A stretch of 64,000 bases of DNA from Schmidtea polychroa. Lineage: Eukaryota. The notes under the pieces are model-generated. The model had not been told where the DNA came from. It worked only from the letters and a program-made list of their open reading frames with translations, and ran no database searches. Made by a program: the position numbers and the translations under genes. This document shows, one piece after another, positions 4,530 to 54,100 of this stretch; positions within the stretch are counted from its first letter, which is position 1; every line of letters begins with the position of its first letter. Location: positions 18,786,001 through 18,850,000 of the forward strand of contig CM097887.1 of the NCBI GenBank assembly GCA_044892525.1. Reading direction: 5' to 3'.

Positions 4530-4956
4530 TATTTTCCATATTAATCGAGCTCGGGTTTCCTTCATCTCTCAGGTTCTTCATTGGCTCGGGTTTCCTATTA
4601 GCTCTGGTTTTCAATTAGCCAATTAATTAATTAATTGACGATTTTCTATTATCACACATTCTAGTGCTTTTTGACCCTTTCTAAACATTTTCTGATAATT
4701 TCCTAATCACCGTCTTGTTGACCATTACTTAATCTATACCTGACCGTTTTTTCGATTAAATTTAGATAAATTTACAATTTATTGATTTTTTCGGATTTGA
4801 GGATTTTTGCCTATCGTAACTGCTTTTGCTATTTCTTAATACCGTTTCCATCATAATTTCCTTTGCCATCAATTCTATGCATGACCACAATTTTATTTGT
4901 CTTTTTCATTCGACTTACATTTTATTTAAATTTATTTTAATTTACTGAACTCATCA
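4530..4956 (-). mobile_element. Partial LTR of the family seen at 24703-25618 and 50801-51839
   Basis: Reverse complement matches the 5' half of the 50801 LTR, including (TAAT)n-TGGCTAAT and the CCCGAGC repeats. The terminus is eroded (AACTCATCA vs ACCTCAACA). Confidence 0.75.
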
Positions 4957-10064: not shown

Positions 10065-10181
10065 TATATATATTTGGTTTTTATACTAACCCAAACAAAT
10101 TCCAATCAATTTGATTGGTGCGTTTCATTTTTGTTTTAAATGCTGTTTTCTACTTTTATTTTGTATTTTTTTATTTTCCTG

Positions 10182-10760
10182 TGTTGGGCTGAATCGAAGG
10201 GTATCCAAGAAATTAGGTTAAACATAATGAAATTAAAATAAAAATGAAACAAAAAACAAATTTAAGAATAAAATAGAATAGGATATAAGAAAAATAATAA
10301 ATTAGAAAATAAGAGTTAAAACAAAAAATATAAAAATAAGGAAAATTGAAATAGGACAATAGAATGACAAAAAATAACGTAAAATGTAGTAAATAATAAA
10401 GAAATTAAAGAAAATAAATAAAAAACACAATAAAAATAAAGAAAATAGGAAAAAATAACTCAAAAACAAGAAAAATAAATTAAAGCAATAAAATTAAGCG
10501 GCACTCAATTCTGATTGGTCCGCACACATCAAAAATTAATATATAAGGAAACACAAAAATTATAAACTTACAGTTAAACAACCAACTTTACAGGTAAGAT
10601 AAATTTTAACAGTTACAGTTAAACAACCAACTTTACAGGTACACAGCAACAACGTACGAGAATCAATCTAGAAACCAGGAGATATTATCAAACAGTTAAT
10701 AATCGACGTAAATTTCGAGTAACCATTTATTCGATTCGATACCTCCCGACTCAGCCTATA
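10182..10760. mobile_element. Possible solo LTR or TIR element
   Basis: Begins TGTTGGGCTGAATCG and ends CGACTCAGCCTATA (imperfect inverted termini). It has a purine-rich interior and an internal direct repeat TTACAGTTAAACAACCAACTTTACAGGTA twice (about 10568 and 10612). Confidence 0.4.
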
Positions 10761-10929
10761 AATCTATACAAATTACTTGGTCAGGGATTTTTCGATTTAT
10801 GCTTTTATCTAAGTAATAGTAGTCATGTAATTTTATGAAATAATTATAAATTTAACTGAAAATAGTTTCCTTTTCGTTTGATTCCTAATGATAAATTTGC
10901 TAATTAGATGATTTAGTTATTCAATAAAT

Positions 10930-12266
10930 GAATTATTATGAACTTTTTATGATTGATTTTCATGCATTATTATTTAATGATTATAAATTTCCGAGAAACG
11001 TGGCGTTGAGAAACTCCATGTCATGGTATGAGGTGCCTTCGGGAGCTCGGCCGGTGGACATGGCGTTTTTCAATCACGCAGCTGATTCGGGCCGTAATGT
11101 GGGGGCTTCCTCACGGGTCCGTCGCTGAAGATGCGACTAAAATAGGTGATCAATACTGTAGAGAGATGGTAACTATCAAGCAATGGGAAGTGTAGGCATA
11201 TGAGGAAAAATCTTGTTCGAGAGTTCGCACAGTGATTGAGGGCGTCATACTATTGTCTTTATCAAATTGAAACTGGTACTATCATCTGAAGATCTATACA
11301 GGATTCTCCGTTAAATCAGTCTGGACATCATTTGTAGCATATTATCTGCGTTCATGATTCCACTCGAAATTATTCCTGAAACCTTCAGCCTAAGGATCTT
11401 CACAACTGCTACTTTCATCATCTATATCCATCACGTGCAATCAACTTTGCTGCGTCTCTCTAAAAACCTACTTGTGGTGAATTGTGACAAACAAATAGTT
11501 CTCAAAAATAATAAACCATAAAATGATAATGAATATAGTCAGGAAAAATGTATTTATAAAAACAATCAAACATGTCATTCCCTTGTATATCGAATACCAA
11601 ACGTTTGTGGCAACTGATGCAAAGTTAGGATGGGAGGTAACTGATCCGATAGACCCTCCATGGGAATAAAATCCGAGTCTTAGAGATGTCACAGAGGATG
11701 ATGGAATATCCGCATTTCGTCGAATTGTATTTCCAGCGATAGTTAATAAATTTCCAACTCGATATAGACAGTGGGCATGTTGATGATGATAAAATCCATG
11801 AGGGGAGTAGAAATTATAGCTTGAATAGTTGACCAGTTTGTCTACGAAACGGATTACATCCAGTAATAGCGGTACGCAAAAGCTACCTATGCAAAATTTC
11901 CACGAGAGATAGAAATTCAACACGGTGTAATATAACATCTGATGATTCATGCAAGCTGCCAAATAGGATAAGAGTCTCACGAAGTGAGTACCCGCACACA
12001 TGTGTAAATGCACACATTGCAAGTTCTAATAGCCAAAATCCACATGCTGGTGCTCACCAATAATAACACGGATATCACTAGCCATAATTCTAAGAGCCTA
12101 TCTTCCAGGTGATACGTTCCTTGAGATCGCATAGTCATCTAACCCGATAGTAGATAATTCACCGCGAACGGCTAACTTGAGAAAAGTCCACCGGGTGTGT
12201 CATATAAAATCTCGGCTAATTACCGAAAGCACTAGACATGAGTGATGATAACACGAGTCACCAACA
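10930..12266 (+). mobile_element. Decayed LTR-retroelement relic ending in an LTR terminus
   Basis: GC-richer block with broken reading frames, ending ...GAGTCACCAACA like the other LTR 3' ends in the window. The 5' boundary was not identified. Confidence 0.45.
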
Positions 12267-12640
12267 ACTCAATAATTAATTTTAAAATAGTAAATAAATG
12301 TGAGATTTGAAAACAAAATTATAATAAATTATAGACAATATAATCGAAAGCCTAAATAAAATACAAACAAAATGCAACTCAATTAATCCAAGTCTATTAC
12401 TGGAACTGCAAAAATTTAATATTTTTGCTTAATGATGAATTAAAACCAACTTATCTAATTATCTATAAAATCATTATAATGATTAGTTAAATTTTCACTT
12501 AGTAGTTATTTAGTTCGGGTTGAATTTTCAATGCTATTTACCCTCTTCAAGAAAAATTTCCGTCATCAATAATTCCTCTTAAACATGTAATTTTCATTTT
12601 CTTTAACAATGATGTACAACCTTCGTTAAGTAAAGCCTAA

Positions 12641-14140
12641 TGTTGTCAGTTGATTTTCTAGTGGGTAAACACCCAGAGTACGCATAGGTTGATGACATAG
12701 GAAATCCCTCTTGATAAATAATCCGTTTTTCTTTTCCTGTAAAAATGTCTAATATTGATTAACGAATGGTGGCGAAAAGTGATGATTTTCTAAATTTGAT
12801 CTACCCATTTAGTGTTATTATTCTTCTTAGCTAGCAGACATGTTACCCACTGCAAAAACCGTCCTCAGACCCTGTTTTTCTTGTTCCGACAAGAACGCGA
12901 TAATCAAGGACCTGCAGACCCAGATCGGACGGTACAAAAAGAGGATAGACGAGTTAGAGGGGACATGGTTTAGTCCCTCCCAGATGAAAGAGACCCAAAA
13001 GAAATTACACCGAAGTGAACATTGCCGGGACGCTCTAATCTCCGAGAGTCGTGCCCAAAGAAGTTTGATCAAGGAGCAGTCCGAGGCGCTGCATAAAGTG
13101 TACATCCAGGCCGCGGCAACTAGAAGGATAGTGAAAATTCCCATCGGTGAAGCCGACAATCTCTTTCCGGCCCACCATGATACTTCTGCCAAATCGTCGC
13201 TCCCTTCGAAAAAACCTTGCCGGCCGTGCGTAGAAACGCAACTCTCGCCAGAGCAACTGGAGGTGGTTTTTGTTGGAAATAGTCGGGTACTGCCTAACGT
13301 CGCCTCTACATCGGCGGTAGCCCCAAACAATTCATCGACCAACAAGCCAAAGCGTCGGCAGCTTTCAAGGGCTGAACGCAAAAGGAAACAGCGTGAGCGA
13401 ATAGCTGCGAAGCAGCCCAAGCAACTGCCGGACCTCGGGAGTAATGTCAATAACGTCCCTGCTGTAATTGACCTAACAGCAAGAACACCTGGGCGGATCA
13501 TATCTGCCGCTGGGGTGACGTGGGAGGAAAACGCCTCCGAATTCTTCAATTTGGACGAGTTACTCGCCGACTCCGAGTGGGAAAAATGAGGATTTTCCCG
13601 TGAGATGACCTCATCCGTCGGAGAGTCCTGAATCAACTAACATCGTTTCCTGTCCTTGTGTTTTCTCTTATTCTAATTCTAATGTATAAAGTACGACGCG
13701 CCTGTATTGCAATGTTTGAAATAAACAATTTTTGTCTGTATACGGGTTTTGATTTTCGTTCATAAGGGATTTAACATTGAGTGGTAAATAGCATTGAGGT
13801 TTTTGAGATTCGAGGAGTACTGTTCAATTTGCAATCCAAACCAAGGGTACGGCGACAGGGTGACAGAATGTGTAGACGTAAGTCCTTCTATCGGCAGTCA
13901 GGGTTAGGAAGTCGGGGTCTCAGTGAGGAGTAGTCCGAAGGTGGCTCACCTGCTCACTGGCACCTCGCCATCATAGCACAGTTCCAACGTGAAGCAATTC
14001 ACGGGTGCTATGTTGGAGTATAGGTTATGTACGGGCCCTGCTCGGGGTGACACAGTAATGACAGGTATAATCGTAACGGGCGTTCATCCCCTAGGCTAGA
14101 AAGTTGAACTAAGGGTGGTCAACCGTGTAGTGCCCCAACA
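12641..14140 (+). mobile_element. 5' LTR (1500 bp)
   Basis: TGTTG...CAACA termini, TATAAA at 13685 and AATAAA at 13720. It is followed after 7 nt by the PBS. Confidence 0.85.
12840..13589 (+). CDS. Intact 249-aa ORF inside LTR U3 (CxxC, coiled coil, basic NLS-like tract, VIDLT SIM-like motif, acidic/aromatic C-terminus)
   Basis: ATG-initiated open frame upstream of the LTR TATA box. Related peptide tails occur in LTRs at 3-122 and about 29360-29517. Confidence 0.7.
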   Translation: MLPTAKTVLRPCFSCSDKNAIIKDLQTQIGRYKKRIDELEGTWFSPSQMKETQKKLHRSEHCRDALISESRAQRSLIKEQSEALHKVYIQAAATRRIVKIPIGEADNLFPAHHDTSAKSSLPSKKPCRPCVETQLSPEQLEVVFVGNSRVLPNVASTSAVAPNNSSTNKPKRRQLSRAERKRKQRERIAAKQPKQLPDLGSNVNNVPAVIDLTARTPGRIISAAGVTWEENASEFFNLDELLADSEWEK

Positions 14141-14147
14141 TAATTTT

Positions 14148-14165
14148 TGGGGGCTCAGCCGGGAT
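14148..14165 (+). promoter_or_regulatory. Primer-binding site complementary to the tRNA-Pro 3' end
   Basis: TGGGGGCTCAGCCGGGAT matches the classical tRNA-Pro PBS TGGGGGCTCGTCCGGGAT at 16 of 18 positions. Confidence 0.85.
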
Positions 14166-14471
14166 CTAGATTGAAATTTCCATTGACTAGTGCGAACTTG
14201 ACTGGGATTTATTATTGAAATTTTGTCGAATAGTGTGAATTCACCGGGATTAGTGATTTTAATTAACTGGCGAATGCAAATTGACTAATGCTTATCGAAT
14301 CTTATTAGAAAATCACGATTAGAAAATAATAAAATTAAAGATATAAATAAAGTAACTTTAATAATGGAGAAATAAGATAAAAGTAAGATAAAGTATAACG
14401 ATTTAAAAGGAAAATGTTTGATGAAACAACCACTAATTAGTTATGTATGACTAAAACATTTTTTTATAGAC

Positions 14472-14957
14472 ATGAAGGAATTCGTGGACCAGATACAACA
14501 ACTAATCAACTTCATAAACATCGAGAATGACTCCTTTAAAACGCTGACACAAAAGAGAGAAAGAATTAACATCATACTACTCCAAGCAATCGGGCAAACA
14601 CCAGTCGTCCCCAACCACATGTTATTAGCCGCAGGACTAAGTCACCCAGATGGGAAGATAAACCCTGAAACCGTGTATCAATGGTATCAAGAGAGATTGA
14701 ACCACCCAGCATTAAATCTTGATTATCAACGTATAAAAGATCCATTAAGTACCATATCAGATACAATCGAGCGAAAAATACAAGAAAAACTGACCCTACT
14801 ACGAACTTGTCTTGCTTGTAAACTTCGTCCTATTCGCGTACTGTTCTTGCCGTGTGGACACCTCAGTCACTGCGAAGAATGTGTGAACAACTTAAAACGA
14901 TGCCCGATATGTAAGCATGAGATAAAAGAAACTCATATGGTTTATTATGGTGAATGA
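14472..14957 (+). CDS. 161-aa protein with C-terminal IAP/MDM2-type C3HC4 RING finger (putative E3 ligase)
   Basis: CLACKLRPIRVLFLPCGHLSHCEECVNNLKRCPICKHEI at the C-terminus. A splice-acceptor-like TTTTTTTATAG lies just before the ATG. No BIR repeat is visible. Confidence 0.9.
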   Translation: MKEFVDQIQQLINFINIENDSFKTLTQKRERINIILLQAIGQTPVVPNHMLLAAGLSHPDGKINPETVYQWYQERLNHPALNLDYQRIKDPLSTISDTIERKIQEKLTLLRTCLACKLRPIRVLFLPCGHLSHCEECVNNLKRCPICKHEIKETHMVYYGE

Positions 14958-15519: not shown

Positions 15520-15967
15520 CGAGCTGTTGAATAGTCCAGCCGGTCAAGGAAAATGAAAACTGAGCTGTGAAAAGTCCAGCCAGTTCGGAGAGATTAAGAT
15601 CGAGTTGTTGAATAGTCCAACCGATCAGAAGGAAGAAGATTGAGCTGTTGAATAGTGCCAGCCAGTCGTAAGATCGAGTTGTTGAATAGTCCAACCGATC
15701 AGAAGGAAGAAGATTGAGCTGTTGAATAGTGCCAGCCAGTCGTAAGATCGAGTTGTTGAATAGTCCAACCGATCAGAAGGAAGAAGATTGAGCTGTTGAA
15801 TAGTGCCAGCCAGTCGTAAGATCGAGTTGTTGAATAGTCCAACCGATCAGAAGGAAGAAGATTGAGCTGTTGAATAGTGCCAGCCAGTCGTAAGATCGGG
15901 TTGTTGAATAGTCCAACCGATCAGAAGGAAGAAGATTGAGCTGTTGAATAGTGCCAGCCAGTCGTAA
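15520..15967. repeat. Tandem array of five 74-bp units (40+34-bp dimer) plus diverged leading subunits
   Basis: Units start at 15601, 15675, 15749, 15823 and 15897 and are almost identical. Both subunits share the core GAG(T/C)TGTTGAATAGT(G)CCA(A/G)CC. Confidence 0.95.
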
Positions 15968-17292
15968 AGGCCTAGAAAACCAAGAGATAGCAGTTAAGCT
16001 AAAATGAGATAATATTTAAATTAATAGTGAAATGGAATATTAAAGCTAGCTAGAAACAAATTGAATGTAATTACGAAAATTTGAGTTTAGAGAGGAAATA
16101 AACGAGCTCGTGGAAAAGATGATAGGATTATAATGAAAAAAGAAGGGGAAGAAGGAAATGAATTAAAGAGATAATGGATAATAAAGAATAGGTGAAATGA
16201 TGATAATGAGTAGAAGAGGAAAGTAACTAACTAATTAAAGGGATCCCAGTGAAGTAGAGAAACTCTACGGAATAATTTTTTTGGGTAAACCGGAAAAATG
16301 CATTTTTATTGGTTCCAGAGTAGAACCGAGTGGGATAATAGTAAATATGAAAAGTAAAATAGCGGCAACAGCGCAAAAGGAATAAGAAAACGAAGGGGGG
16401 TAATAAGCAGAGACCGACAACGACCTATTTATATTATAATTGATAGCGAATAGATAATTATTACGACTTTATAGATAATTGTTACTACCCCATATAGATA
16501 ATTTAAAATCGACGAAAAATACGGGCTGATGGGAAATTATAACCCGCGGAAAGGATTTCACAAAAGATAGGGGAAGCACAAACAGAAACCTAAAAGGTGT
16601 CTGTGTTTGAATGTTGCAGAAAGAATGATGAAGTCGTGTAAGCAGATGCAACACGAGATCATTTTTTCATTTTAGATATCAAATCAAGCCAGCCAATCAA
16701 GCCAATCCAGAACCTGCACAAAAGGAATTCGAGGAAATCGACAATCGACCAAGAATAAATCCATTCAGAACCCGCACCAAGAAACCCAGCAACCGGAAGA
16801 CTCCAGAACGGAAGAAGATACAGATAGCGACATCTCCAACTTCGAACAAATCACCGATATATTCAGCCTCATAGTATTAGCAGCCATCTGCCAAGGACTA
16901 GCAAATCTCCTCAGAATCTCAGTAGCAGATTCATACAGAATACTTTTCGAAGGAAACGCAATCAGATCCGAACTCGTCCGGTTCAGTAGCCGCTAATTAC
17001 AAAGAAGCGTAAGAAAGGAATCACGGATAAACCCAATCTTAGATCGTCAAGTAAGACAAGAGACGTATTATTTTCAGGAGACGAATTACAACAACTCAAA
17101 AGAGGACGATCTATTAAACATCAAAGAGGAATATCACAAGGAGCAAGAAGAACCAACCAAACAACCGTATTTGACCAAGAAAATCTCGAATACACCCCTA
17201 GTCGATCTCAAAGCAGAGAAAGTCTGTCCGACATCACTAATAGTTTAGCAACGTCAACCGAAGAACTATCAGCCCAAAGTTTAGTCACATCA

Positions 17293-18657
17293 TTGGATAA
17301 GTTAAAAGAAACAGACGAATCTAGAACACCAATCATGACGAATGTCGTAAAAACCGACGAGTATAAAGAAAAGTTCCGAGGAGAACCGTTCAATGGAAAT
17401 GCAAACAAGTTAGCAACGTTTATAACTAATTTTGAAGTTTATATCACGGTGTGTGGATGGATACCCGAAGCAATTAGCAAAAGGATGCCGTTGTTTTTGT
17501 GCGATAGCGCATTAGAAGTATATTTAGAAGCTAAAGAGAGAGATACGAAATTAGAGAAGTGGGAAGATATCAAAACATTCTTGAAGAAAACCTTCGGAGC
17601 CAGTAAGCCAATCAACCAGGCGTTGGGCGAACTAGCAAATAGGAAACAAAGAGCGAACGAATCGATAACATTATATGCCAGTGAATTAAGAAGATTGGCG
17701 AAGAAAGCAATGAATGGGAAATTACCCGAGGAAAATCTGATTGGCTATTTCATAGAGGGATTACGCCGAGAGGAGGTAAGAGCCTCAGTAGGTTGTCAAA
17801 TGTGCAAAACGTTAGAGGAAGCCATAGACTGGGCTACAAGATGCGAGCTCCACCTTCCAGCTCAAATGAATATTATGCAAGAGGATGGGAGGATAGCGAC
17901 AGCAATAGCGAAAGCGGATAACGGAGATAACAACAATCAGGAACCGAAAATGAATCAATTTATACCAGGAGCGCATCAAATTTTCAAACCACCACAAGGA
18001 CGATCAAATGGGAATAATGGTAATCGTAACAACTTGAATAATGAGAACAATTTTAATAATCGACGAAATATGAACGATAACAAGCAGTGCCGAACATGTG
18101 GTAAACCAGGACACTGGGACAGAGATTGTTATAGAAACGCAAATTGTAATCGTTGCGGACGGCGTGGACATACGGAAAATAGATGCCAGTTGAGAGGTTG
18201 TTTTAACTGTGGTCAGCCAGGTCACATCTCCAGAGACTGCCGAGAAAGGGACCAACCACAACGACCACCACAACGAAATACTAATTACATGTCGAATCCG
18301 CAACGACAAAGCAACCCTAGTGAAGGAAAACAAATGAACGTTATGCAGGAAATCTCACAAATGAAACAGATGATGCAACAGATGATGAGACCAAGACAAG
18401 AACCAGCACCACAACAAACCCAGAATATACGTATGATGAGGAGTACCGAAAATCTCAATAGTTATGAAGTACATCAACATGTACAAGAATGGCAAAGACT
18501 ACAGGCCGAGGAAGAGAGGATAAAACAAGAACGCAACCAACAACGACAAGAACAACCATTGCGAATAAATATGATGAAGTTAGTAAATGACATGAAAAGC
18601 CAGTACTGCTACAATTACGGGAAAAACCTAAGGGTAGTACCCATGACTGAACCATAG
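17293..18657 (+). CDS. gag: Gag: retrotransposon capsid domain plus three CCHC zinc knuckles
   Basis: PFNG...FITNFE...W...L.DSALEVY...WEDIKTFLKKTF, QRANESITLYASEL and FIEGL capsid motifs. Knuckles are CRTCGKPGHWDRDC, CNRCGRRGHTENRC and CFNCGQPGHISRDC. Confidence 0.95.
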   Translation: MDKLKETDESRTPIMTNVVKTDEYKEKFRGEPFNGNANKLATFITNFEVYITVCGWIPEAISKRMPLFLCDSALEVYLEAKERDTKLEKWEDIKTFLKKTFGASKPINQALGELANRKQRANESITLYASELRRLAKKAMNGKLPEENLIGYFIEGLRREEVRASVGCQMCKTLEEAIDWATRCELHLPAQMNIMQEDGRIATAIAKADNGDNNNQEPKMNQFIPGAHQIFKPPQGRSNGNNGNRNNLNNENNFNNRRNMNDNKQCRTCGKPGHWDRDCYRNANCNRCGRRGHTENRCQLRGCFNCGQPGHISRDCRERDQPQRPPQRNTNYMSNPQRQSNPSEGKQMNVMQEISQMKQMMQQMMRPRQEPAPQQTQNIRMMRSTENLNSYEVHQHVQEWQRLQAEEERIKQERNQQRQEQPLRINMMKLVNDMKSQYCYNYGKNLRVVPMTEP

Positions 18658-19290
18658 AAGGTAAAAGAAACGACAACGGAAATGAAAACAGAGAATTCAA
18701 CCACGATCTTAAACGGGAACCAGAGAATTCAGAAAATATTCTGGAAAAAGATAAAAGATAAAATCGAAAAAGAATATAATAAAGCGAAAACCGAGACAGA
18801 AGAGGAAAATAACAAGAGCAAGGAACAAGCCAGTCAACCAAACCGCCAAATGCTACAGGAACGGGAATCTGAGGAAACAACGATATTCGAAAATAGAAAA
18901 CTAAAGAGGGTACCTAGGATGAGAAATTTGCGAATCAACATGATGAAAAGGACAAAAGGTACGTCGTCCTCAGACGAAGACTATGTGAGCAGTTTGGGTG
19001 GAGAAATACTCGAAATCGAAGAGGAAGAAGGCGAAAGCGAAATAACCAGCGGAAGTGAAGACGAGGATATAGAAATAAAGTTGAGAAAAGAGAGGGAGGA
19101 AGCGATAAAACAAGTAGCTGAAATACTCCCAGTAGTAGTGAGGAACCAAGAGTTCATCGATATAATACCATTCAGACGATTCGTGCAAAAAGTGATGAAA
19201 TTGGGAAGAAACGAGAAAGATTTAATACCAAACGAGGAAAAATCAATTATAAAAAATTATATGGAAAAAATGAAGCAGGCCGATACCACG

Positions 19291-19512
19291 CGGTATGTAA
19301 TAAAAATCGGAACGAGTAGAGGACTTGAAAGAATGTGGATTAAAAATACAGTCACCGACGAACTTTTCGATTGGATACGAGAACATTTGGGAAGTTCGAG
19401 AAAGAAAGAATATCTGTATCAATACCAAGGAGAACAGATCAAACCAGATATGCACTTAGTGGATGCACTAATATGGCCAGGAGAAACGCAAATACTGAAG
19501 TTGCACAAAGAA
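19291..19512 (+). other. Ubiquitin/SUMO-like domain 1 in polyprotein
   Basis: RYVIKIGTSRGLERMWIKNTVTDELFDWIREHLG...YLYQYQGEQIKPDMHLVDALIWPGETQILKLH follows the beta-grasp pattern. Confidence 0.5.
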
Positions 19513-19808
19513 AAACAACCAGCAAACCTGTACGATTGGGCTAAAGATGCCAAGGCGAATATGATTTTAATATCAAATTGAAGTTAGAACAAATAAAGCA
19601 ATGTACTCTGAGACGAAACCTGGACAAGCTGATCAAACAAATTCAAGAACAAGTGGAAGACAACTGGGATTTACTCATCACCAGACGAGCCCCAGCCATG
19701 TACGAACTAATGAGCCGGTTGCGAGATACAGAATTGCTCCGAATGAGTGATTGGAGAACCATAAATTTGATCCACAAATATGGAAGGTTAAAAGAAACCC
19801 AGCCGCAG

Positions 19809-20063
19809 AGGTTGGAAATAACCATATGGTTACCGAACGAAGAGAAACGACGAATAAAAATGAGCAATCAGAGTACAGTGGATGATTTGGTATCAAAGAT
19901 AAACCAAGAAATAACGGAAAAGGTACGTAGCGAAAGTAGTGATGGTATGGTGGATGATGTAGTCATGATGTACGATAAAATAATATTACGAGCGGAAGAC
20001 GACACCTCGTTGAGCGAAATGGGTATGTGGGACGATCATCAGATAATCAGGATAGTACCAATG
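19809..20063 (+). other. Ubiquitin-like domain 2 in polyprotein
   Basis: LEITIWLPNEEKRRIKMSNQSTVDDLVSKINQEI...VVMMYDKIILRAEDDTSLSEMGMWDDHQIIRIV parallels the ubiquitin pattern TIxxVKxKI...LIFxGKxLxDxxTLxDxxI. Confidence 0.65.
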
Positions 20064-20756
20064 GATGAATTTCGAACAAGAGACGTAACGTATCAAAAAG
20101 AAATACGAGACCGGATGAAAACGTTATATCAAAAATCTACAGAAATAATTGAAATTCACCAACGATGGTTAAAAGAAAAGGAACTACGAGGAAAAATCAC
20201 GAAACTAAGCACCAGATCCTGCAGACGAACCCCGTGGGAAAGAGTGTGGGATATAGAAAATAAGGAATGGGAAATCCGGAAAGGAATCTTCGTAGAAACA
20301 GACATTGGGGAGACAGAAAGTGAATCGGAGGAAGAAGAAGAGGAACCCCCAGAATATGAAGAGGAAGCAAGGGGACAGATCTCAGATGACGAAAGCGAGA
20401 CGGATGTCACGTCAGAAAGCGAAAATGAAGCGAGACATATTCATGCAATGCGGAAAAAGGAACGTGAATATGCCGATATGGACGGCGAGGAAGCGACAGA
20501 AGCAAGAGAACGAGAAGAGAAAGAAAGATATAAACAATTAGGCGATATCTTAGCAATGGGAGCGAAAAATCAAAAACGTCAGGTAGTAGCATTGGCTAAT
20601 ATCATCTTAAAGACATCAGAAAATATCCACAATCTGAGAGAAATGGCGAAAGTAATAGAGGAATACCGGCAATATAATGAATGGTATCCAGAACAGCTAG
20701 AACAAATTATTCGAAAATGGAGAAATCAAGAGTGGGCACAAGACACCCAGGAGAGG

Positions 20757-20960
20757 TATCACATCCGAATCAAGTATCCGGACAAGAGCATTGAAGAACT
20801 AGAAGTACATCCAACAACGAAAATTAGAGAATTAAAAAAGAAATTAGCATATGAAACTCCATTCCATCTGCAACTATTCGGAAAATCACTAGACGATAAT
20901 GTAGACGTCGGAATAACACCCATGAGATTAGAAGAGACTACTGTGCTAACAGTGGCGGAA
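20757..20960 (+). other. Ubiquitin-like domain 3 in polyprotein
   Basis: YHIRIKYPDKSIEELEVHPTTKIRELKKKL...LQLFGKSLDDN aligns with ubiquitin LEVEPSDTIENVKAKI...LIFAGKQLEDG. Confidence 0.7.
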
Positions 20961-21587
20961 ACGTTGGGAAAACCGTTGAAAAGGAAAAGCAAAATTAATA
21001 AACCAACAAAAGGTAGTTTGAGTACTCCAAGTCCAAACCAAGCCCCAAGTAAATCTAATGAAACTGAAGAAGTTGAAGAGATTATCCTCGAAGATAGTGA
21101 CGACGAACCAGGAGAAAGATCACCGCTATTAGTGAGATGGCCAACAGGAGCCGAAATATGGACCAACAACCAACCATCAACAAGTTATCAACAACCAACG
21201 AAACTGAACATCAAGGAAATCGTCGACAATACTACAGAAACCGAAACGGATGAACGATTCCAGAAGCAAAGAGAACCAACAAAAATAACACCGGAAGGTC
21301 AAACTGATAAAATAATAGATGAGTGGAATGAGTGGCTGAGAAATAACGATAGCTCATTACCCAGAACAGATAACGAAAGAAATCCGAATTACGAAAATAC
21401 CAGAGAAGCTGGAACGATGATGGAAAAACGGGCAAAAGGAAGACCTAAGAAACAAAGAGAGAAATCTGAGTTCAAAACCAAGGAACAAGTAAAACAAGAA
21501 CAAGGACAAGTTCGATTGGAAAAGTTAGATAAAATAGTATGGGATCTAAAAGAAGCTCAACCAACGATCGAAAGAGGAGAAAAATGA

Positions 21588-21975
21588 ATACGAGAATTGA
21601 TCAAAGATATGTTAATAATAACAAATCCACAACTTAGACGCTTGTGGCAACGGAAAGTAGCCAGTGTAGAAGCTAGACAATTATGGCACATCGTATCGGG
21701 GATAATCCCAAAGCTAATCAAAGAAAAAACGAAAACTACCAAAACGGATTGGGATGAAACCAAGAGAGTGATTGAACAGCTCACGACAAATGCAAATGAT
21801 GACGAACATCATCTAGTAGTAATCACTTAATTGATGTATAATTTGATGGGATTAGCTGCAAGGAAAATACCTAATAAACAGTTCGCAAATCACGTAGAAA
21901 TGACCGTGTCAATCATAGAAAACACTATTGAACCCCATATTATCCGTGCCGGAGGATGGAAAAGACTTATACAAA
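21588..21975 (+). other. Bcl-2-like domain (one in-frame stop)
   Basis: BH2-like IEPHIIRAGGWKRL (cf. Bcl-xL LEPWIQENGGWDTF). Helix spacing from RVIEQL to GGW is within one residue of Bcl-xL QVVNEL...GGW. The NWGR of BH1 is not conserved. Confidence 0.65.
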
Positions 21976-22081
21976 CGCCACGAAAAAATGAGCAAGAAAG
22001 GTCGATGCAAGTTAGATTGAAAAAGCTGTTAAATGAACTAGAATGGGAACTACCGATGAAAGATCCAGCAAGCAGAAAAGC

Positions 22082-22298
22082 ATCAATAAATTCGTTAGTG
22101 ATGACTATGATGATATGGATGTTGTGCACAAGTGGAGCAACGGGTTTTACCATCTACGATTGTGATAATATGATAATGAGAGATAAATACTCATTGAGAG
22201 ATATAGAAGAATGCAGACAAGCATCACCCAACAAATTGGACATAGTAAAAACAAAAGTTACCTACCATGTATATCAAGAATCAGATTTCATCACCTGA
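22082..22298 (+). other. Signal-like hydrophobic segment and start of env-like glycoprotein
   Basis: SINSLVMTMMIWMLCTSGATG followed by FTIYDCDNMIMRDKYSLRDIEEC. This YDC...SL.D..EC pattern opens env-like ORFs of several invertebrate gypsy elements. Confidence 0.55.
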
Positions 22299-24702: not shown

Positions 24703-25618
24703 TGTTGAGGTTTTGAAATTGAATGGCGGTCAAGCAGGGAAGCAATGGCAAAGAAAGATATGATAAAAACATAACTATAAAAGGGTACAATCAGACATGA
24801 AATGGAAAAATGCTCAAACCTGAGGAAGTGGAATAAAATGAAAAGTTATCGAAATTGAAGCTGGAAAATGGGAGAGGGGTAGATTAGTGTATGGTGAAGA
24901 AGACAGTGATCAAGAAATTGCTAGAAAATGTTTAGAAGGGGTCGTAAAACAGGCAGATAAAAAACCCAAAATATTAATTAATTAATTAATTGGCTAATGG
25001 AAAACCCGAGCTAATGGGAAGCCCGAGCCAATGGAAAAGCCGAGCGCGGCAATTTGGGAGGATAAACAAATGGGGAAGTCAGAGAGCAATTATCCAAACA
25101 GCCGGATAAACGAGGGTAAACAAAAGAAGGGGAATCAGGAAGAGGGTCAACAGAAATAGCTAATTAGGGAATGATAACTAAGGAAGTCAAAACCAATTAG
25201 GTCAAAAATAGGGCAATTACAACGATTATGGGAATATATAAGGAAACTCCAAATTCACATAATTGGCAATAGCCTTAGGTAGGGAAGAAGAAACCGACAT
25301 TAGAAGTTAAAGGAATAGAATAAAAGAAGAAAAAGAATTATAGGAAAAACTGAAGAGTTAGACAAGGAGCGTTAAAAAAGATTGGATCAGAGAGTGGAAC
25401 TAAATCAAAAAGTGAAACTTAATTTTTTAATCGTACAAGGTTGAGACCTTCCAGAGCAGAGTCCGATCTGAAATTGTGTGAGAATCAGCTGTGTAATTAA
25501 TTGTGAGAGTTAAAAATTTTTATAAAACAAATATACGTTGGGAGTTTGTGTTTATTGATTTTGGAACACGTGGAGTCAGAGTAACCAACGGTTGATTTTG
25601 ATATCATAAAACCCAACA
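24703..25618 (+). mobile_element. Solo LTR (916 bp)
   Basis: TGTTGAGG...ACCCAACA termini and perfect 4-bp TSD CATT. Homologous to 50801-51839. Confidence 0.92.
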
Positions 25619-49246: not shown

Positions 49247-52204
49247 CTACGGCATTTTTTCACGTCTATCTTTTTCATTGGCCCAATATTGATAAACTTC
49301 ATCTAAATCTATATTTTTTTGAGACATTAAATGTGATTTTATTCGCATCAAGCATTCCAAATGATTAATTTCAATTCTATTTCTAGATTTAGTTTTTATA
49401 GAATTCATTAAACTTAATCCACGTTCACAATCGCAACTGGATGCTAGAAATGTTGAGCTAATGTCTAGTAAAAATTTCAGTTCATTGAATTGGTCATCTT
49501 TTAAAACGAAATTCACCAAGTCCGTGAATGTTTGAATTGAACCAGCTTGTATTTTTCGGCCACAATAAATTTTAATGTGGTATATTGCTGGCATATCGTC
49601 TCTGCTGCAGTGTTATTAAAATTGGGAATAAACAGAATATTTTCGTACTAACTTTAGAACACTTTCTTTCCCAAATTCAAAGTTAGTAGTGTTTGCTATT
49701 TGCACCAGGATCGAATGCATACCACTCTATAAAATCTTCTTCATGGAACCTACTCTCCGAGTGTTTACATAAAAGTTCAATTAATCGAATAATTGCAGAT
49801 GTATCAACGTCATTGTTTGATAGAGCTAAAAATTTCTTGACATCATCACTCCAACATACTACATCACTCAAATACTGACTTTTCAGTTTATTTATAGTTC
49901 CTTTTGCAAACCGAAGAGCTTCCAATGATGTTAAACCACTTCTTTGAAATAATTTGGTTAGTGCAGCAAGGTCGCATAAAACTTCATTTAAAATTACTAT
50001 TGCAACATGGTGTTGTGGATTTTTAAGCATTTTCAAACAATATTTGCTAATAGGATCATTAAAATTTTGGACCTTTTCGGTGCAGTAGTCAATTAGGGTA
50101 TCATAATTTCGAATTAAAGCTTTCACGGCAAAGTGTCTAGAAAGCCATCTTACTTCATTGAGTGGTCGAAACGCTAGTGCATCACATTCTGTTAAATTAG
50201 CCTTTTCTTGAAATTGTTCTTTCCTTATAGACGATCGGTGAAACATAGTGTAAACTGTCCTCAAAAGTGTTTCGATATCCTGCATGATCGAGACCTGTCT
50301 GCAAGCATCATCTATGGCAAGATCTTCTTTGTGGGCTACGCAATGTTGTTCAGATAAATGCTTAATTTCATGTCGAAGTCGTGCTGCTACACCATTATTT
50401 TTTCCTAACATAACTGAAGCTCCATCAGAAGTAAAGAGTACCATTTTTTGTAAATTTAGATTATTGTCAGCATAAAATGCTTTAATTGCTTCTACAATAG
50501 AAATGCTGTCGCAACCGGTCATTTTTAAAATACCACAAAATTCAGTTCTGTATACAAATTCACATTCTGGTCGATATTTCATGTATACTATTAATATTTT
50601 CTGTACAGAAATATCTGTACTTTCATCCATTGTCAGTGTATGGAAACTCGATTTACGTAATTCATCAATGAATTTTTGTTTTATTATGAAATTTATACAT
50701 TCGACAAATTCATATGCATAATTTTTACTACGCCATGAATGAGGAATTGATACATATTTAGCCATATGTTCATGTATTGCTTGCATCGAAAGCATAGATG
50801 TGTTGAGGTCTGTAAATTAAAATTAAAAATTTAAATAAAATTCAGGATAATAATTTAAATAGATAGTAAGCGAAGAAAGAAGACAAATAAAAGCGGGATC
50901 GCGCACAGAATCAATAGTAAAGGAAAGTGTGATGGAAACAGTATTAGAAAATGCCAAAAGCAATTACGAAAGACAAGAATCCGGAAATCCGAGAAAAATC
51001 AATAAATGGAAAAATCATCGAAATCGAATGGGAAAAACGGGACAGGTATAGATTAGCTAATGGTCAACAAGATGATGGTTAGGGATTTATCAGAAAATGG
51101 TTAGGAAGGGTCGAAAAACATTCAAATGTATGAAAACAGAAAACGTTAATTAATTAATTAATTGGCTAATGGAAAACCCGAGCTAATGGGAAACCCGAGC
51201 CAATGGAGAACCCGAGAGATAAAGGAAACCCGAGCTGGGTAAACAAGAAGAAAAGCCCATTAGCTTGACATAATGATTAATGGGAAAAGAGTAAGGAGAA
51301 GATAACGCGCGTAGGAAGACCGGTAGGGCCATTAATTATCTGGATTCCTTGGACCATTATGGGTGACAGCCGAAGCAAACACGTAGGAGCAAATGTCAAA
51401 CGAAAGATTGGCTCGGCAATAACCATTTGTCATCCTGATTTCGAGGAGTATATAAGCAAAGGGGAAATCAGAGAAAATCGGCATTTTGCCTCAGCTATGG
51501 TTCGAAGAATCAGACTGTAGGAAAAGTTGGTAGACGAATTAGGGAAAGTAGGGAAAAGAAGAAATAGAATTAAGAATACGGAAAGGTGAAAAGAAATCAA
51601 ACCAAACAGAAACCGAGGAAAACGTGAATCGATAGAATCTAAAGGACTAAAAGGTGAATATTATTTGTTTGCAAAGCATGAACGTCGAGCGTAGAATCGT
51701 ATAAAACTTTGATTGGTAATTGTAGCGTGATAATAAATTGTGAACCTGTTGTTTCAATATACGTTGGGTCGTTCATTGTTTTGATTTAAAGAACACATGA
51801 GTCAGAGAGAACCGACTTGAAATAATCCAAAACCCAACAGATGTATTTATTTGGATTCCAAGTATCACATTATCAATAAGAATTTTTACCATATTCCGAT
51901 CAGATCGCTTGCGTTCAGCCAAATCGGCTCTGTTCTTAGAAGTTTCTGGCGTTTCGTTTAAAAGACGTAAAATTCCACCTCCCATTCGATTCCTTAAGGT
52001 AAATACAGAATCAGTATGAACCTTTTGTTTTAAATGTCTTTTTAAATAATCTAATTTCCAGTCACTCCATTTTTTTCCACTAGAAAATTCTCCTGGAGCA
52101 CTTACTTCTGAACAAAATTTACACGTAACTTCATCTTTTTCAATACAGTAAATGAAAATTTCTCCAATTTTAACTTTTATGGTTTTATTAGATGAAGTTG
52201 GCAT
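49247..52204 (-). pseudogene. hAT transposase (TTF zinc finger, DDE core, dimerisation domain)
   Basis: CKFC...YLKRH; TMDESTDIS; FTSDGASVM; HCVAH; EVRWLSRH; SCDCERGLSLMNSIKTKSRNR. Removing the LTR and one TSD restores QINTS-MLSMQ in frame. Confidence 0.92.
50801..51839 (+). mobile_element. Solo LTR (1039 bp) inserted in the hAT transposase
   Basis: TGTTGAGG...ACCCAACA termini and perfect 4-bp TSD GATG. Confidence 0.95.
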
Positions 52205-54100
52205 TTGTGTTTCAACCAGCTCATCTAGCCACTCTTTTTTGAAAATTTAATTTATAATATAGTATTATTATAAATTAAATATAACTTAGAAATAATTCTT
52301 TTTGAATATAAAATAATTTATAATTATAAAATTGATATGATAATTTTATTTAGCAGATTGTTTGAATTTTTGTTCAGGATTTATTTTTTTTGTCCTAGAA
52401 ATTTGAAATTTATTAACTTATTTTCATTATTGCAAATACTTTAAATTTTACCACAATCTCCAGTTATAATTAGTTTTTTTAAAGTTGAACAAACACGAAT
52501 TTACTTAGTTGCACAGTTACAGAGATACTAATAAAATATTATAACTAACAAAAGCATAAAATAAATTGCCATGAAATTTAAGAATGCAAAAATAAAAAAC
52601 GACCGTTGCTATGGTAAATATGAAAGAAAGCCGGTAGTTTGATGAAAGTAACTAACTTTTTTTTCTTGGGGTTTTATTTTCAAAATTTTGAATGTATTTC
52701 AAATTTTTTTTTTAAATATGTTGTATATACTTTGTATAGGAATATAAATAATTTTGTAACAATATTTCTAAAAATTAAAAAAAAAACAAGTGCGCGGATT
52801 TAGAAAAACAGTGCGCGAATGATTTTTAGCAGCTGCGCAGCTTAGAGGGAACATTGTGTCGAATATATTTAGAAAAATTTTAATTAATTACGTGTCAAAA
52901 TTCAGATTACATCCACCATGGTGGGTGGCACAATTTCAACTGACAGCGGGCATCCTACGCACTAAATGTTTTAAATGTTTTTGAACAAAAAAATAATGGA
53001 GTTACCCCGCTGGGGCCTCTTGAGGCCCGAAAATGAGTAAAATTTGCTGCATGTGCCGTAACGAATTTTGTGTTTTGGTGAAATTACATCTTCTCTGTTG
53101 TTAAATGAATCTGAACACGAAAATATTCAAAATAGCGATGAAAATATATTAATATGGCATTGCAAACCAAACCTTATGTCAAAAGTAAATTGGAGAGAGG
53201 TTTATAAAATGAATTTTTAGGAACTGAAACATTAAAATCTTATTTAAAATATTTATCAAATTCAAGATGAATTTGTTCTCAATTCACTAATATTAATTGA
53301 AGAAGATTTTGAAAACAGTTCAAAATGTAATTGGTCAATCAGTTTATAAGTTCAAAAATATCCAGTAAAACCGCGATGATTCTGTAGAGCTAATATACGA
53401 AAGGGGAAATGTCACATAACAAACAGTTATACGATAATCTGCATAAATTTCAAGAAACGAGACTTTTGTTGGTTTGGCTTCTGCCACCAATTTTAGAATT
53501 AATATAAAATTCAAGTAGGTAAAATTATTAAGATTTATTATATTTGAAATTGATTTTCGTTGCATTTTATTCCTCAAGTCCTCATGAATTTAATTATATT
53601 AATAGTGAATCGAATTTTTTATTACGTATGCAAACCCTATTGAAAAATTAGCGTCAATCTCAACACAAATTGTGGGAACACCTGAAACATCGATCGAATC
53701 CCTATTATTTATTTATTTTTACAAATTGATTTTGTTCCAAAACAATAATTAACATTGAACTTTTTGATGCAAAATCAAAATTTGAAATAATTAATTTTTT
53801 CATGAGAGATTAAAATCTAACCTAAAAAATTTTCTGCATGCATCGAAAAATCTTAAATTATCCATTTAAACTTTTTCGAATTTAATTTTACATTATTTAC
53901 ATGCAATTAATACTTTGAAATATATGCCTTGTGTTTTTTTCGAAATGATGTTCCCATTATTTTGGTTTTCTTGAAAATTTTTCTAATTTGACCACTGAGA
54001 TTACCTTTTACAGCAATTTAAAAGAAATTTGTCATGGGTTATTATATTTCAAATCTATATAAAATAAATATTTTTATTTTTATACTTAGATATAATTTAA

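Follow-up and report, generated by a model that had tools for sequence, protein, structure and literature searches.

Repeated units of a helical domain and a ubiquitin-like segment in the accessory region of a Burro-type retrotransposon from Schmidtea polychroa

Introduction

What role could several ubiquitin-like (Ubl) segments play inside the polyprotein of a flatworm retrotransposon? The question is raised by a stretch of 64,000 nucleotides of Schmidtea polychroa (GenBank assembly GCA_044892525.1, contig CM097887.1, positions 18,786,001 to 18,850,000, forward strand), referred to here as the window. An initial annotation had placed three Ubl segments at 19291..20960 of the window, embedded in a Gag polyprotein. 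Burro elements are abundant in planarians, and the segments lie in a Burro-type gypsy retrotransposon, in a copy that is truncated and no longer open in one frame. The three segments are present at the positions proposed; the predicted fold confirms a beta-grasp for the last of them, and profiles make the other two likely Ubls. They are not part of Gag proper: the region lies between its zinc knuckles and a Bcl-2-like domain, in what we call the accessory region. In front of each Ubl stands a helical domain of 64-98 residues, which the initial annotation did not mention.

The ubiquitin-like segments

In the window copy U1 is encoded in the open reading frame (ORF) 18658-19581, and U2 and U3 are encoded in ORF 19545-21587. 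Their positions and the evidence for them, including the ratio of non-synonymous to synonymous substitution rates (dN/dS), are as follows.

19288..19515, + strand: U1, likely Ubl (profiles, beta-grasp order at low confidence, dN/dS 0.05)
19806..20069, + strand: U2, likely Ubl with a lengthened helix (profiles, weak Pfam matches to beta-grasp families, dN/dS 0.02)
20751..20963, + strand: U3, beta-grasp Ubl (fold, profiles)

Besides the model, U3 is supported by a profile-profile comparison (E 2.4e-5) and by a Pfam match of the single segment to ubiquitin (E 0.0019), and a sequence search of the PDB with U3 alone gave E 0.84 only. Submitted singly to Pfam, U2 matched several beta-grasp families at E 0.04-0.1 and U1 matched none. 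The assignment of U1 and U2 comes from profiles. A profile of 14 Ubls, taken from other families and from metagenomic proteins with the window's family and its nearest relative left out, scored U1 at 7.5, U2 at 9.3 and U3 at 27.2 bits, each with 0/1000 shuffled sequences as high; with a smaller profile of 9 Ubls the shuffles as high numbered 7, 0 and 0 per 1000. A generic profile built from 1,289 domains of the ubiquitin family, mildly circular in that its source proteins were found via the element profile, gave 4.6 bits for U1 (3/1000 shuffles), 13.2 bits for U2 (0/1000) and likewise 0/1000 for U3, and within a stretch of 3,333 aa it matched only at these three places. When a profile of 15 element units was run against the PDB, 390 sequences were found at E up to 10, and the 60 matches listed were ubiquitin, its variants, ISG15, ubiquilin and similar proteins (E 3e-34 to 1e-3). 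Word-index protein searches found no relative of the segments. Ubiquitin clusters were neighbours in the Atlas at 0.90 for U3 and 0.88-0.89 for U1, which serves as a lead only.

Between two subfamilies dN/dS is 0.05 for U1, 0.02 for U2 and 0.04 for U3, similar to Gag and Env; the values are rough because synonymous sites are near saturation, and at the sequence level they show purifying selection on the Ubl segments. The C-terminal di-Gly of a type I, conjugatable Ubl is absent from all three window Ubls and was found in only 1 of 26 Ubls overall. The description of the segments as type II, integral Ubls is firm in the case of U3 and likely in that of U1 and U2, no GG following any of the three. 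The single case among the 26 is U2 of a family with a 4,791-aa frame (family B; L038:1716-2000), where GG stands a few residues past the last strand. A fourth Ubl, guessed by eye at about 19560-19775, was rejected: its family-B counterpart and both models are helical, and on the Ubl profiles 11/1000 and 38/1000 shuffles scored as high.

The helical domain and the repeat unit

The domains that precede the three Ubls are:

19096..19287, + strand: helical domain H1, three helices, predicted local distance difference test score (pLDDT) 68-80
19519..19805, + strand: helical domain H2, with a frameshift near 19555 in the window copy (models, family-B counterpart)
20523..20750, + strand: helical domain H3, four helices, pLDDT 73-84

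On a profile of the helical domains of other families H3 scored 12.0 bits with 0/1000 shuffles as high, which supports homology between H3 and those domains. The family-B counterpart of H2 reached 12.2 bits on this profile (0/1000 shuffles); a larger profile was weaker (16/1000). Searches of the PDB and Pfam with the helical domain gave nothing convincing. Its fold is neither assigned nor excluded, because the rows of the structural search, which spanned residues 551-626 only, were filled by U3, with U1 and U2 also not among them.

Helical domain and Ubl together form a unit that recurs in related elements. Other families were gathered from the genome by BIR, MATH, Bcl-2, Env and module searches, and all seven families collected carry at least one Ubl-like segment or unit at the same place. 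The window family, a sister subfamily and the 4,791-aa family have three units each; three further families have two, and the remaining two have one. Two families outside the set used to build the profile were recovered at E 1e-28 or better. Against 1.84 billion proteins the unit profile gave 850 matches. Most of the best 150 covered the Ubl half only, and six that were checked by Pfam or sequence are poly-Ubl proteins. The whole unit was matched in four metagenomic proteins (P0014, P0037, P0074 and P0093), two of which, P0074 and P0093, have Gag features. As judged from these sequences, a helical-Ubl unit repeating one to three times across related elements is an addition to the published Burro annotation.

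Acidic tracts and SUMO-interacting motifs

The initial annotation described acidic tracts interleaved with the Ubls and a resemblance of EEIILEDSDDE to a SUMO-interacting motif (SIM). The tracts are real, and they flank the units; what separates U1 from U2 is a helical domain.

18970..19095, + strand: acidic tract 1, ahead of unit 1; D+E make up 50% of the 30 aa that start at 19012
20290..20500, + strand: acidic tract 2, after U2 and ahead of unit 3; D+E make up 57% of the 30 aa that start at 20316
21075..21107, + strand: acidic, non-canonical SIM-like stretch EEIILEDSDDE, kept in 18/20 close copies

In the 4,791-aa family a MATH domain lies where the window family has acidic tract 2. A SIM consists of a four-residue hydrophobic core with an acidic flank. 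EEIILEDSDDE has the flank and a core of three residues, matches none of the four-residue core patterns searched and is not conserved in the 4,791-aa family, the nearest other family, so that its reading as a SIM is not upheld. Elsewhere, VIDLT (window 13464-13478, in an ORF of the long terminal repeat, LTR) and VVDLT (residue 803 of P0074, after the Ubl) match what we take to be the SIMb pattern; by this pattern they are better SIM candidates than EEIILEDSDDE.

The element and its other features

The segments lie in an A-rich coding stretch with ORFs at 16990-18657, 18658-19581, 19545-21587, 21588-21830 and 21831-22298. By Pfam, the first of these holds a retrotransposon Gag with CCHC knuckles, and in the last a fusion protein of Monjiviricetes type begins; an ORF with a RING lies upstream. 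The coding part is 93% identical to another copy, carries three premature stops and one frameshift, and its match ends at 22293; a copy broken in this way cannot make the whole accessory region. Other copies of the family have a single Gag-Env-Pol frame of 4,732 aa. A genome search with U3 gave 608 candidates; 150 were scored and are 90-100% identical, and 59 of these 150, by our own count, fall inside the 4,732-aa open frame.

The domain order in one natural copy, assembled from separately read stretches, is Gag, CCHC, helical-Ubl region, Bcl-2-like, Env, protease, reverse transcriptase, RNase H, integrase and ankyrin repeats, after which comes a RING+MATH ORF. At L022:4653-8942 four accessory ORFs were seen 3' of Pol, one of them RING+MATH (TRAF-like) and three without a Pfam match. 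The natural copy whose order is given above has LTRs of about 3.9 kb in an element of about 30 kb; the family moved recently, since its two LTRs are 99.8-100% identical to each other. The identity of the window LTR to the LTR of that copy is only 72-82%, against 93% for the coding region, which suggests LTR subtypes or recombination. The remaining features are:

10156..14140, + strand: 5' LTR, bounds approximate, 72-82% identical in five pieces to another copy's LTR
12831..13589, + strand: ORF of 252 aa within the LTR, with the VIDLT motif at 13464 (ORF list, motif pattern); Pfam gave no match above cut-off
14148..14165, + strand: sequence like a primer-binding site, presumably for tRNA-Pro
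14451..14957, + strand: accessory ORF with a C-terminal RING finger (PF13920, E 1.4e-12; no BIR match)
15595..15967, no strand assigned: 74-bp tandem repeat, 5 copies, in the leader (repeat scan)
16990..18657, + strand: Gag, capsid and three CCHC knuckles (PF03732, E 2.2e-10; PF00098, E 1.3e-10), ending here at a premature stop where the frame runs on in other copies
21435..21446, + strand: KGRP, which we take to be AT-hook-like (pattern search)
21567..21974, + strand: Bcl-2-like domain, with premature stops at 21585 and 21828 in the window copy
22050..22293, + strand: signal-like segment and start of Env, where the copy breaks off (PF24664, E 0.0045)

The Bcl-2-like assignment (PF00452) has E 0.017 in another copy, below the Pfam cut-off, and 2e-5 to 5e-5 in related families; Env in another copy matches PF24664 at E 2.3e-70.

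Some other repeats were noticed. A separate group of elements with DUF1759, a BEL/Pao-type Gag (L029:3674-7858, L030:2467-6513, L031:4046-7579, L032:2550-6008 and L035:2722-5721), has ubiquitin in front of Gag, as one or two near-canonical copies (PF00240, E 1e-22 to 1e-57); in L030 and L031 the LRLRGG junction is intact. Further captured host domains in this group are a dual-specificity phosphatase, and EAP30 and a proteasome subunit. The ubiquitin may form a host-cleavable fusion; a literature search found no paper on such a fusion by title. On the minus strand of the window, ORFs at 49683-52246 match DUF4371 and a zinc finger and are probably the remnant of a DNA transposon. The window also holds three copies of a dispersed repeat that has a subunit of 17 bp (4532-4753, 24865-25044 and 51032-51252).

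Comparison with published elements

A Ubi2/SUMO-like motif (PF11976) between MATH and BCL-2 was published for Burro elements in 2019 (PMC6431247, available text). The initial annotation did not recognise a Ubl triplet in a retrotransposon; in this respect its claim of novelty is overstated because of that motif. The count of three was not found in the literature searched. The available text of PMC6431247 names one Ubi2/SUMO-like motif, whereas the window family has three, each behind a helical domain. The literature search returned no account of the triplet or of the repeat unit, although other papers on Burro, their supplements or Fig. 2A of PMC6431247 may show it.

With Burro1/GYPSM1 and Burro-like elements, as described in the same text, the window family shares the single giant ORF, the Gag with three CCHC knuckles, a Ubi2/SUMO-like motif before the BCL-2-like one, an in-frame Env placed between Gag and Pol, long LTRs, ankyrin repeats, tandem repeats and MATH/TRAF cargo. 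Burro-like characters found in the window family are an ORF of more than 4,000 aa that joins Gag, Env and Pol in one frame, LTRs of about 3.9 kb in a total of about 30 kb, a BCL2-like motif that precedes Env and ankyrin repeats that follow the integrase. Unlike Burro1, it has MATH not in ORF1 but in the 3' RING+MATH ORF, and a RING-only ORF lies 5' of Gag. A BIR of the Burro1 type gave no match in the window family (8 ORFs scanned, and the stretches read), nor did Pfam find a dUTPase there. The 4,791-aa family of the same genome is nearer to the Burro1 layout, with both MATH inside ORF1 and BIR. According to a second-hand account in the available part of PMC13465017, the IAP of Burro1 protects stem cells.

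Six related flatworm elements, Smed_errantivirus_1-6, have a gB-type Env and share the GAG-ENV-POL order with the window family (PMC13524379, in the part concerning them). The window-family Env is nearest to number 5, with about half of some 60 residues identical as judged by eye. The main text and 7 supplements of PMC13524379 mention neither ubiquitin nor SUMO nor Bcl, and the available parts of PMC11410931 and PMC8532177 hold nothing further on the domains.

Possible functions

In view of the above, we tentatively propose that the triple helical-Ubl units, which lack di-Gly, act as non-conjugated modules on which host proteins of ubiquitin signalling or cell death dock, a reading that falls a little short of being probable. 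Since the Ubls are non-conjugatable and kept by selection, they are likely binding modules, and the Bcl-2-like, RING, TRAF/MATH and ankyrin neighbours, together with BIR in a sister family, point to host ubiquitin signalling and cell death. In this scheme U1 and U2 would share the fold of U3, and the three units would go back to a single captured unit that was duplicated. The accessory region would be cut free of Gag and Env by the protease of the element, after which the units and the Bcl-2-like, RING, TRAF/MATH and ankyrin cargo would bind host regulators. Such binding could help the expressing cell, or the proteins of the element, to survive.

Several results weigh against this proposal. 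The model of U1 has strands and helix in the right order at pLDDT 36-60, from 4 rows; in U2 only the first half, hairpin and helix, formed, also at low confidence, and a single-sequence fold of U1-U2 was unusable (pLDDT 39). Neither U1 nor U2, searched singly by sequence against the PDB, found a ubiquitin-family match, and profile-profile comparisons were weak (P 0.019 for U1, P 0.048 for U2). H1 and H2 were equalled on the helical profile by 318/1000 and 120/1000 shuffles; for the whole units 1 and 2 these numbers were 4/1000 and 2/1000. The selection estimates are rough, as stated above. By eye, U3 has Gln where ubiquitin has Ile44, which makes plain mimicry of the ubiquitin patch unlikely, and the link to cell death is drawn from the neighbouring cargo only. 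Could U3 then be the only Ubl, with U1 and U2 being other alpha/beta domains or decayed remnants? The non-significant searches, the unfolded second half of U2 and the restriction of the structural-search rows to U3 would be consistent with this. However, two separate profiles put U1 and U2 above shuffles in two families that are about 42% identical, the generic profile matches nothing else in its 3,333-aa stretch, and both segments are strongly constrained, so that we consider this quite improbable.

Integral Ubls also occur in coronavirus nsp3, where Ubl1 and an acidic region bind the N protein, and ubiquitin inserts in pestivirus polyproteins act as processing signals. The former resemble the window Ubls as folds in a viral polyprotein next to acidic tracts; the latter, of which matches in BVDV were found, are cleavable, unlike the window Ubls without di-Gly. 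Both belong to a different virus group from the window element and the likeness shown is one of fold only. By analogy with nsp3, the units and acidic tracts could serve particle assembly by binding the element's own basic nucleocapsid or RNA. The region directly follows the zinc knuckles in every family examined, acidic tracts flank the units, and at least one unit is retained in all seven families. Yet a unit number varying from one to three and a MATH inserted among the units in one family suit accessory host-binding cargo more, and ordinary gypsy elements assemble without such domains; an assembly role seems unlikely. By the pestivirus analogy, the Ubls could be signals cut by host deubiquitinases or SUMO proteases. 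Their place between Gag and Env, where cleavage is needed, and the GG after family-B U2 would fit, but the tails of 25/26 Ubls, all three of the window included, lack GG and the element encodes its own protease, which leaves this very improbable.

A nuclear role would give more weight to the helical domain, which by eye looks like the N-terminal domain of host TFIIS (TFIIS-N): it could bind transcription factors while the AT-hook-like motif contacts DNA, and integration or transcription would be guided in this way. Compared with a profile built from 11 host TFIIS-N domains, H3 reached 8.1 bits with 0/500 shuffles as high, and [RK]GRP was found in 7/11 proteins checked. Against this, only 2/19 helical domains beat all shuffles, both of them H3 of close subfamilies; reversed sequences scored equally well in the reciprocal test; PDB and Pfam offered no notable match, and a Pfam Med26 search listed no long element frame. 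Nuclear targeting is accordingly unlikely. Improbable to a similar degree is the wider proposal of an undescribed TFIIS-N-like bundle with an integral Ubl that was captured once, was amplified one- to threefold and tethers element proteins to the host transcription or ubiquitin machinery, without a counterpart among the host proteins searched. As a separate observation, many near-identical copies of a TFIIS-N gene, presumably IWS1-like, are clustered on one chromosome (L080-L090).

Docking to host proteins remains the reading that we prefer. The results refine the published annotation of Burro elements and do not reveal a new system. The helical-Ubl unit, conserved and duplicated, offers a small and defined target for finding the host proteins that Burro elements engage.
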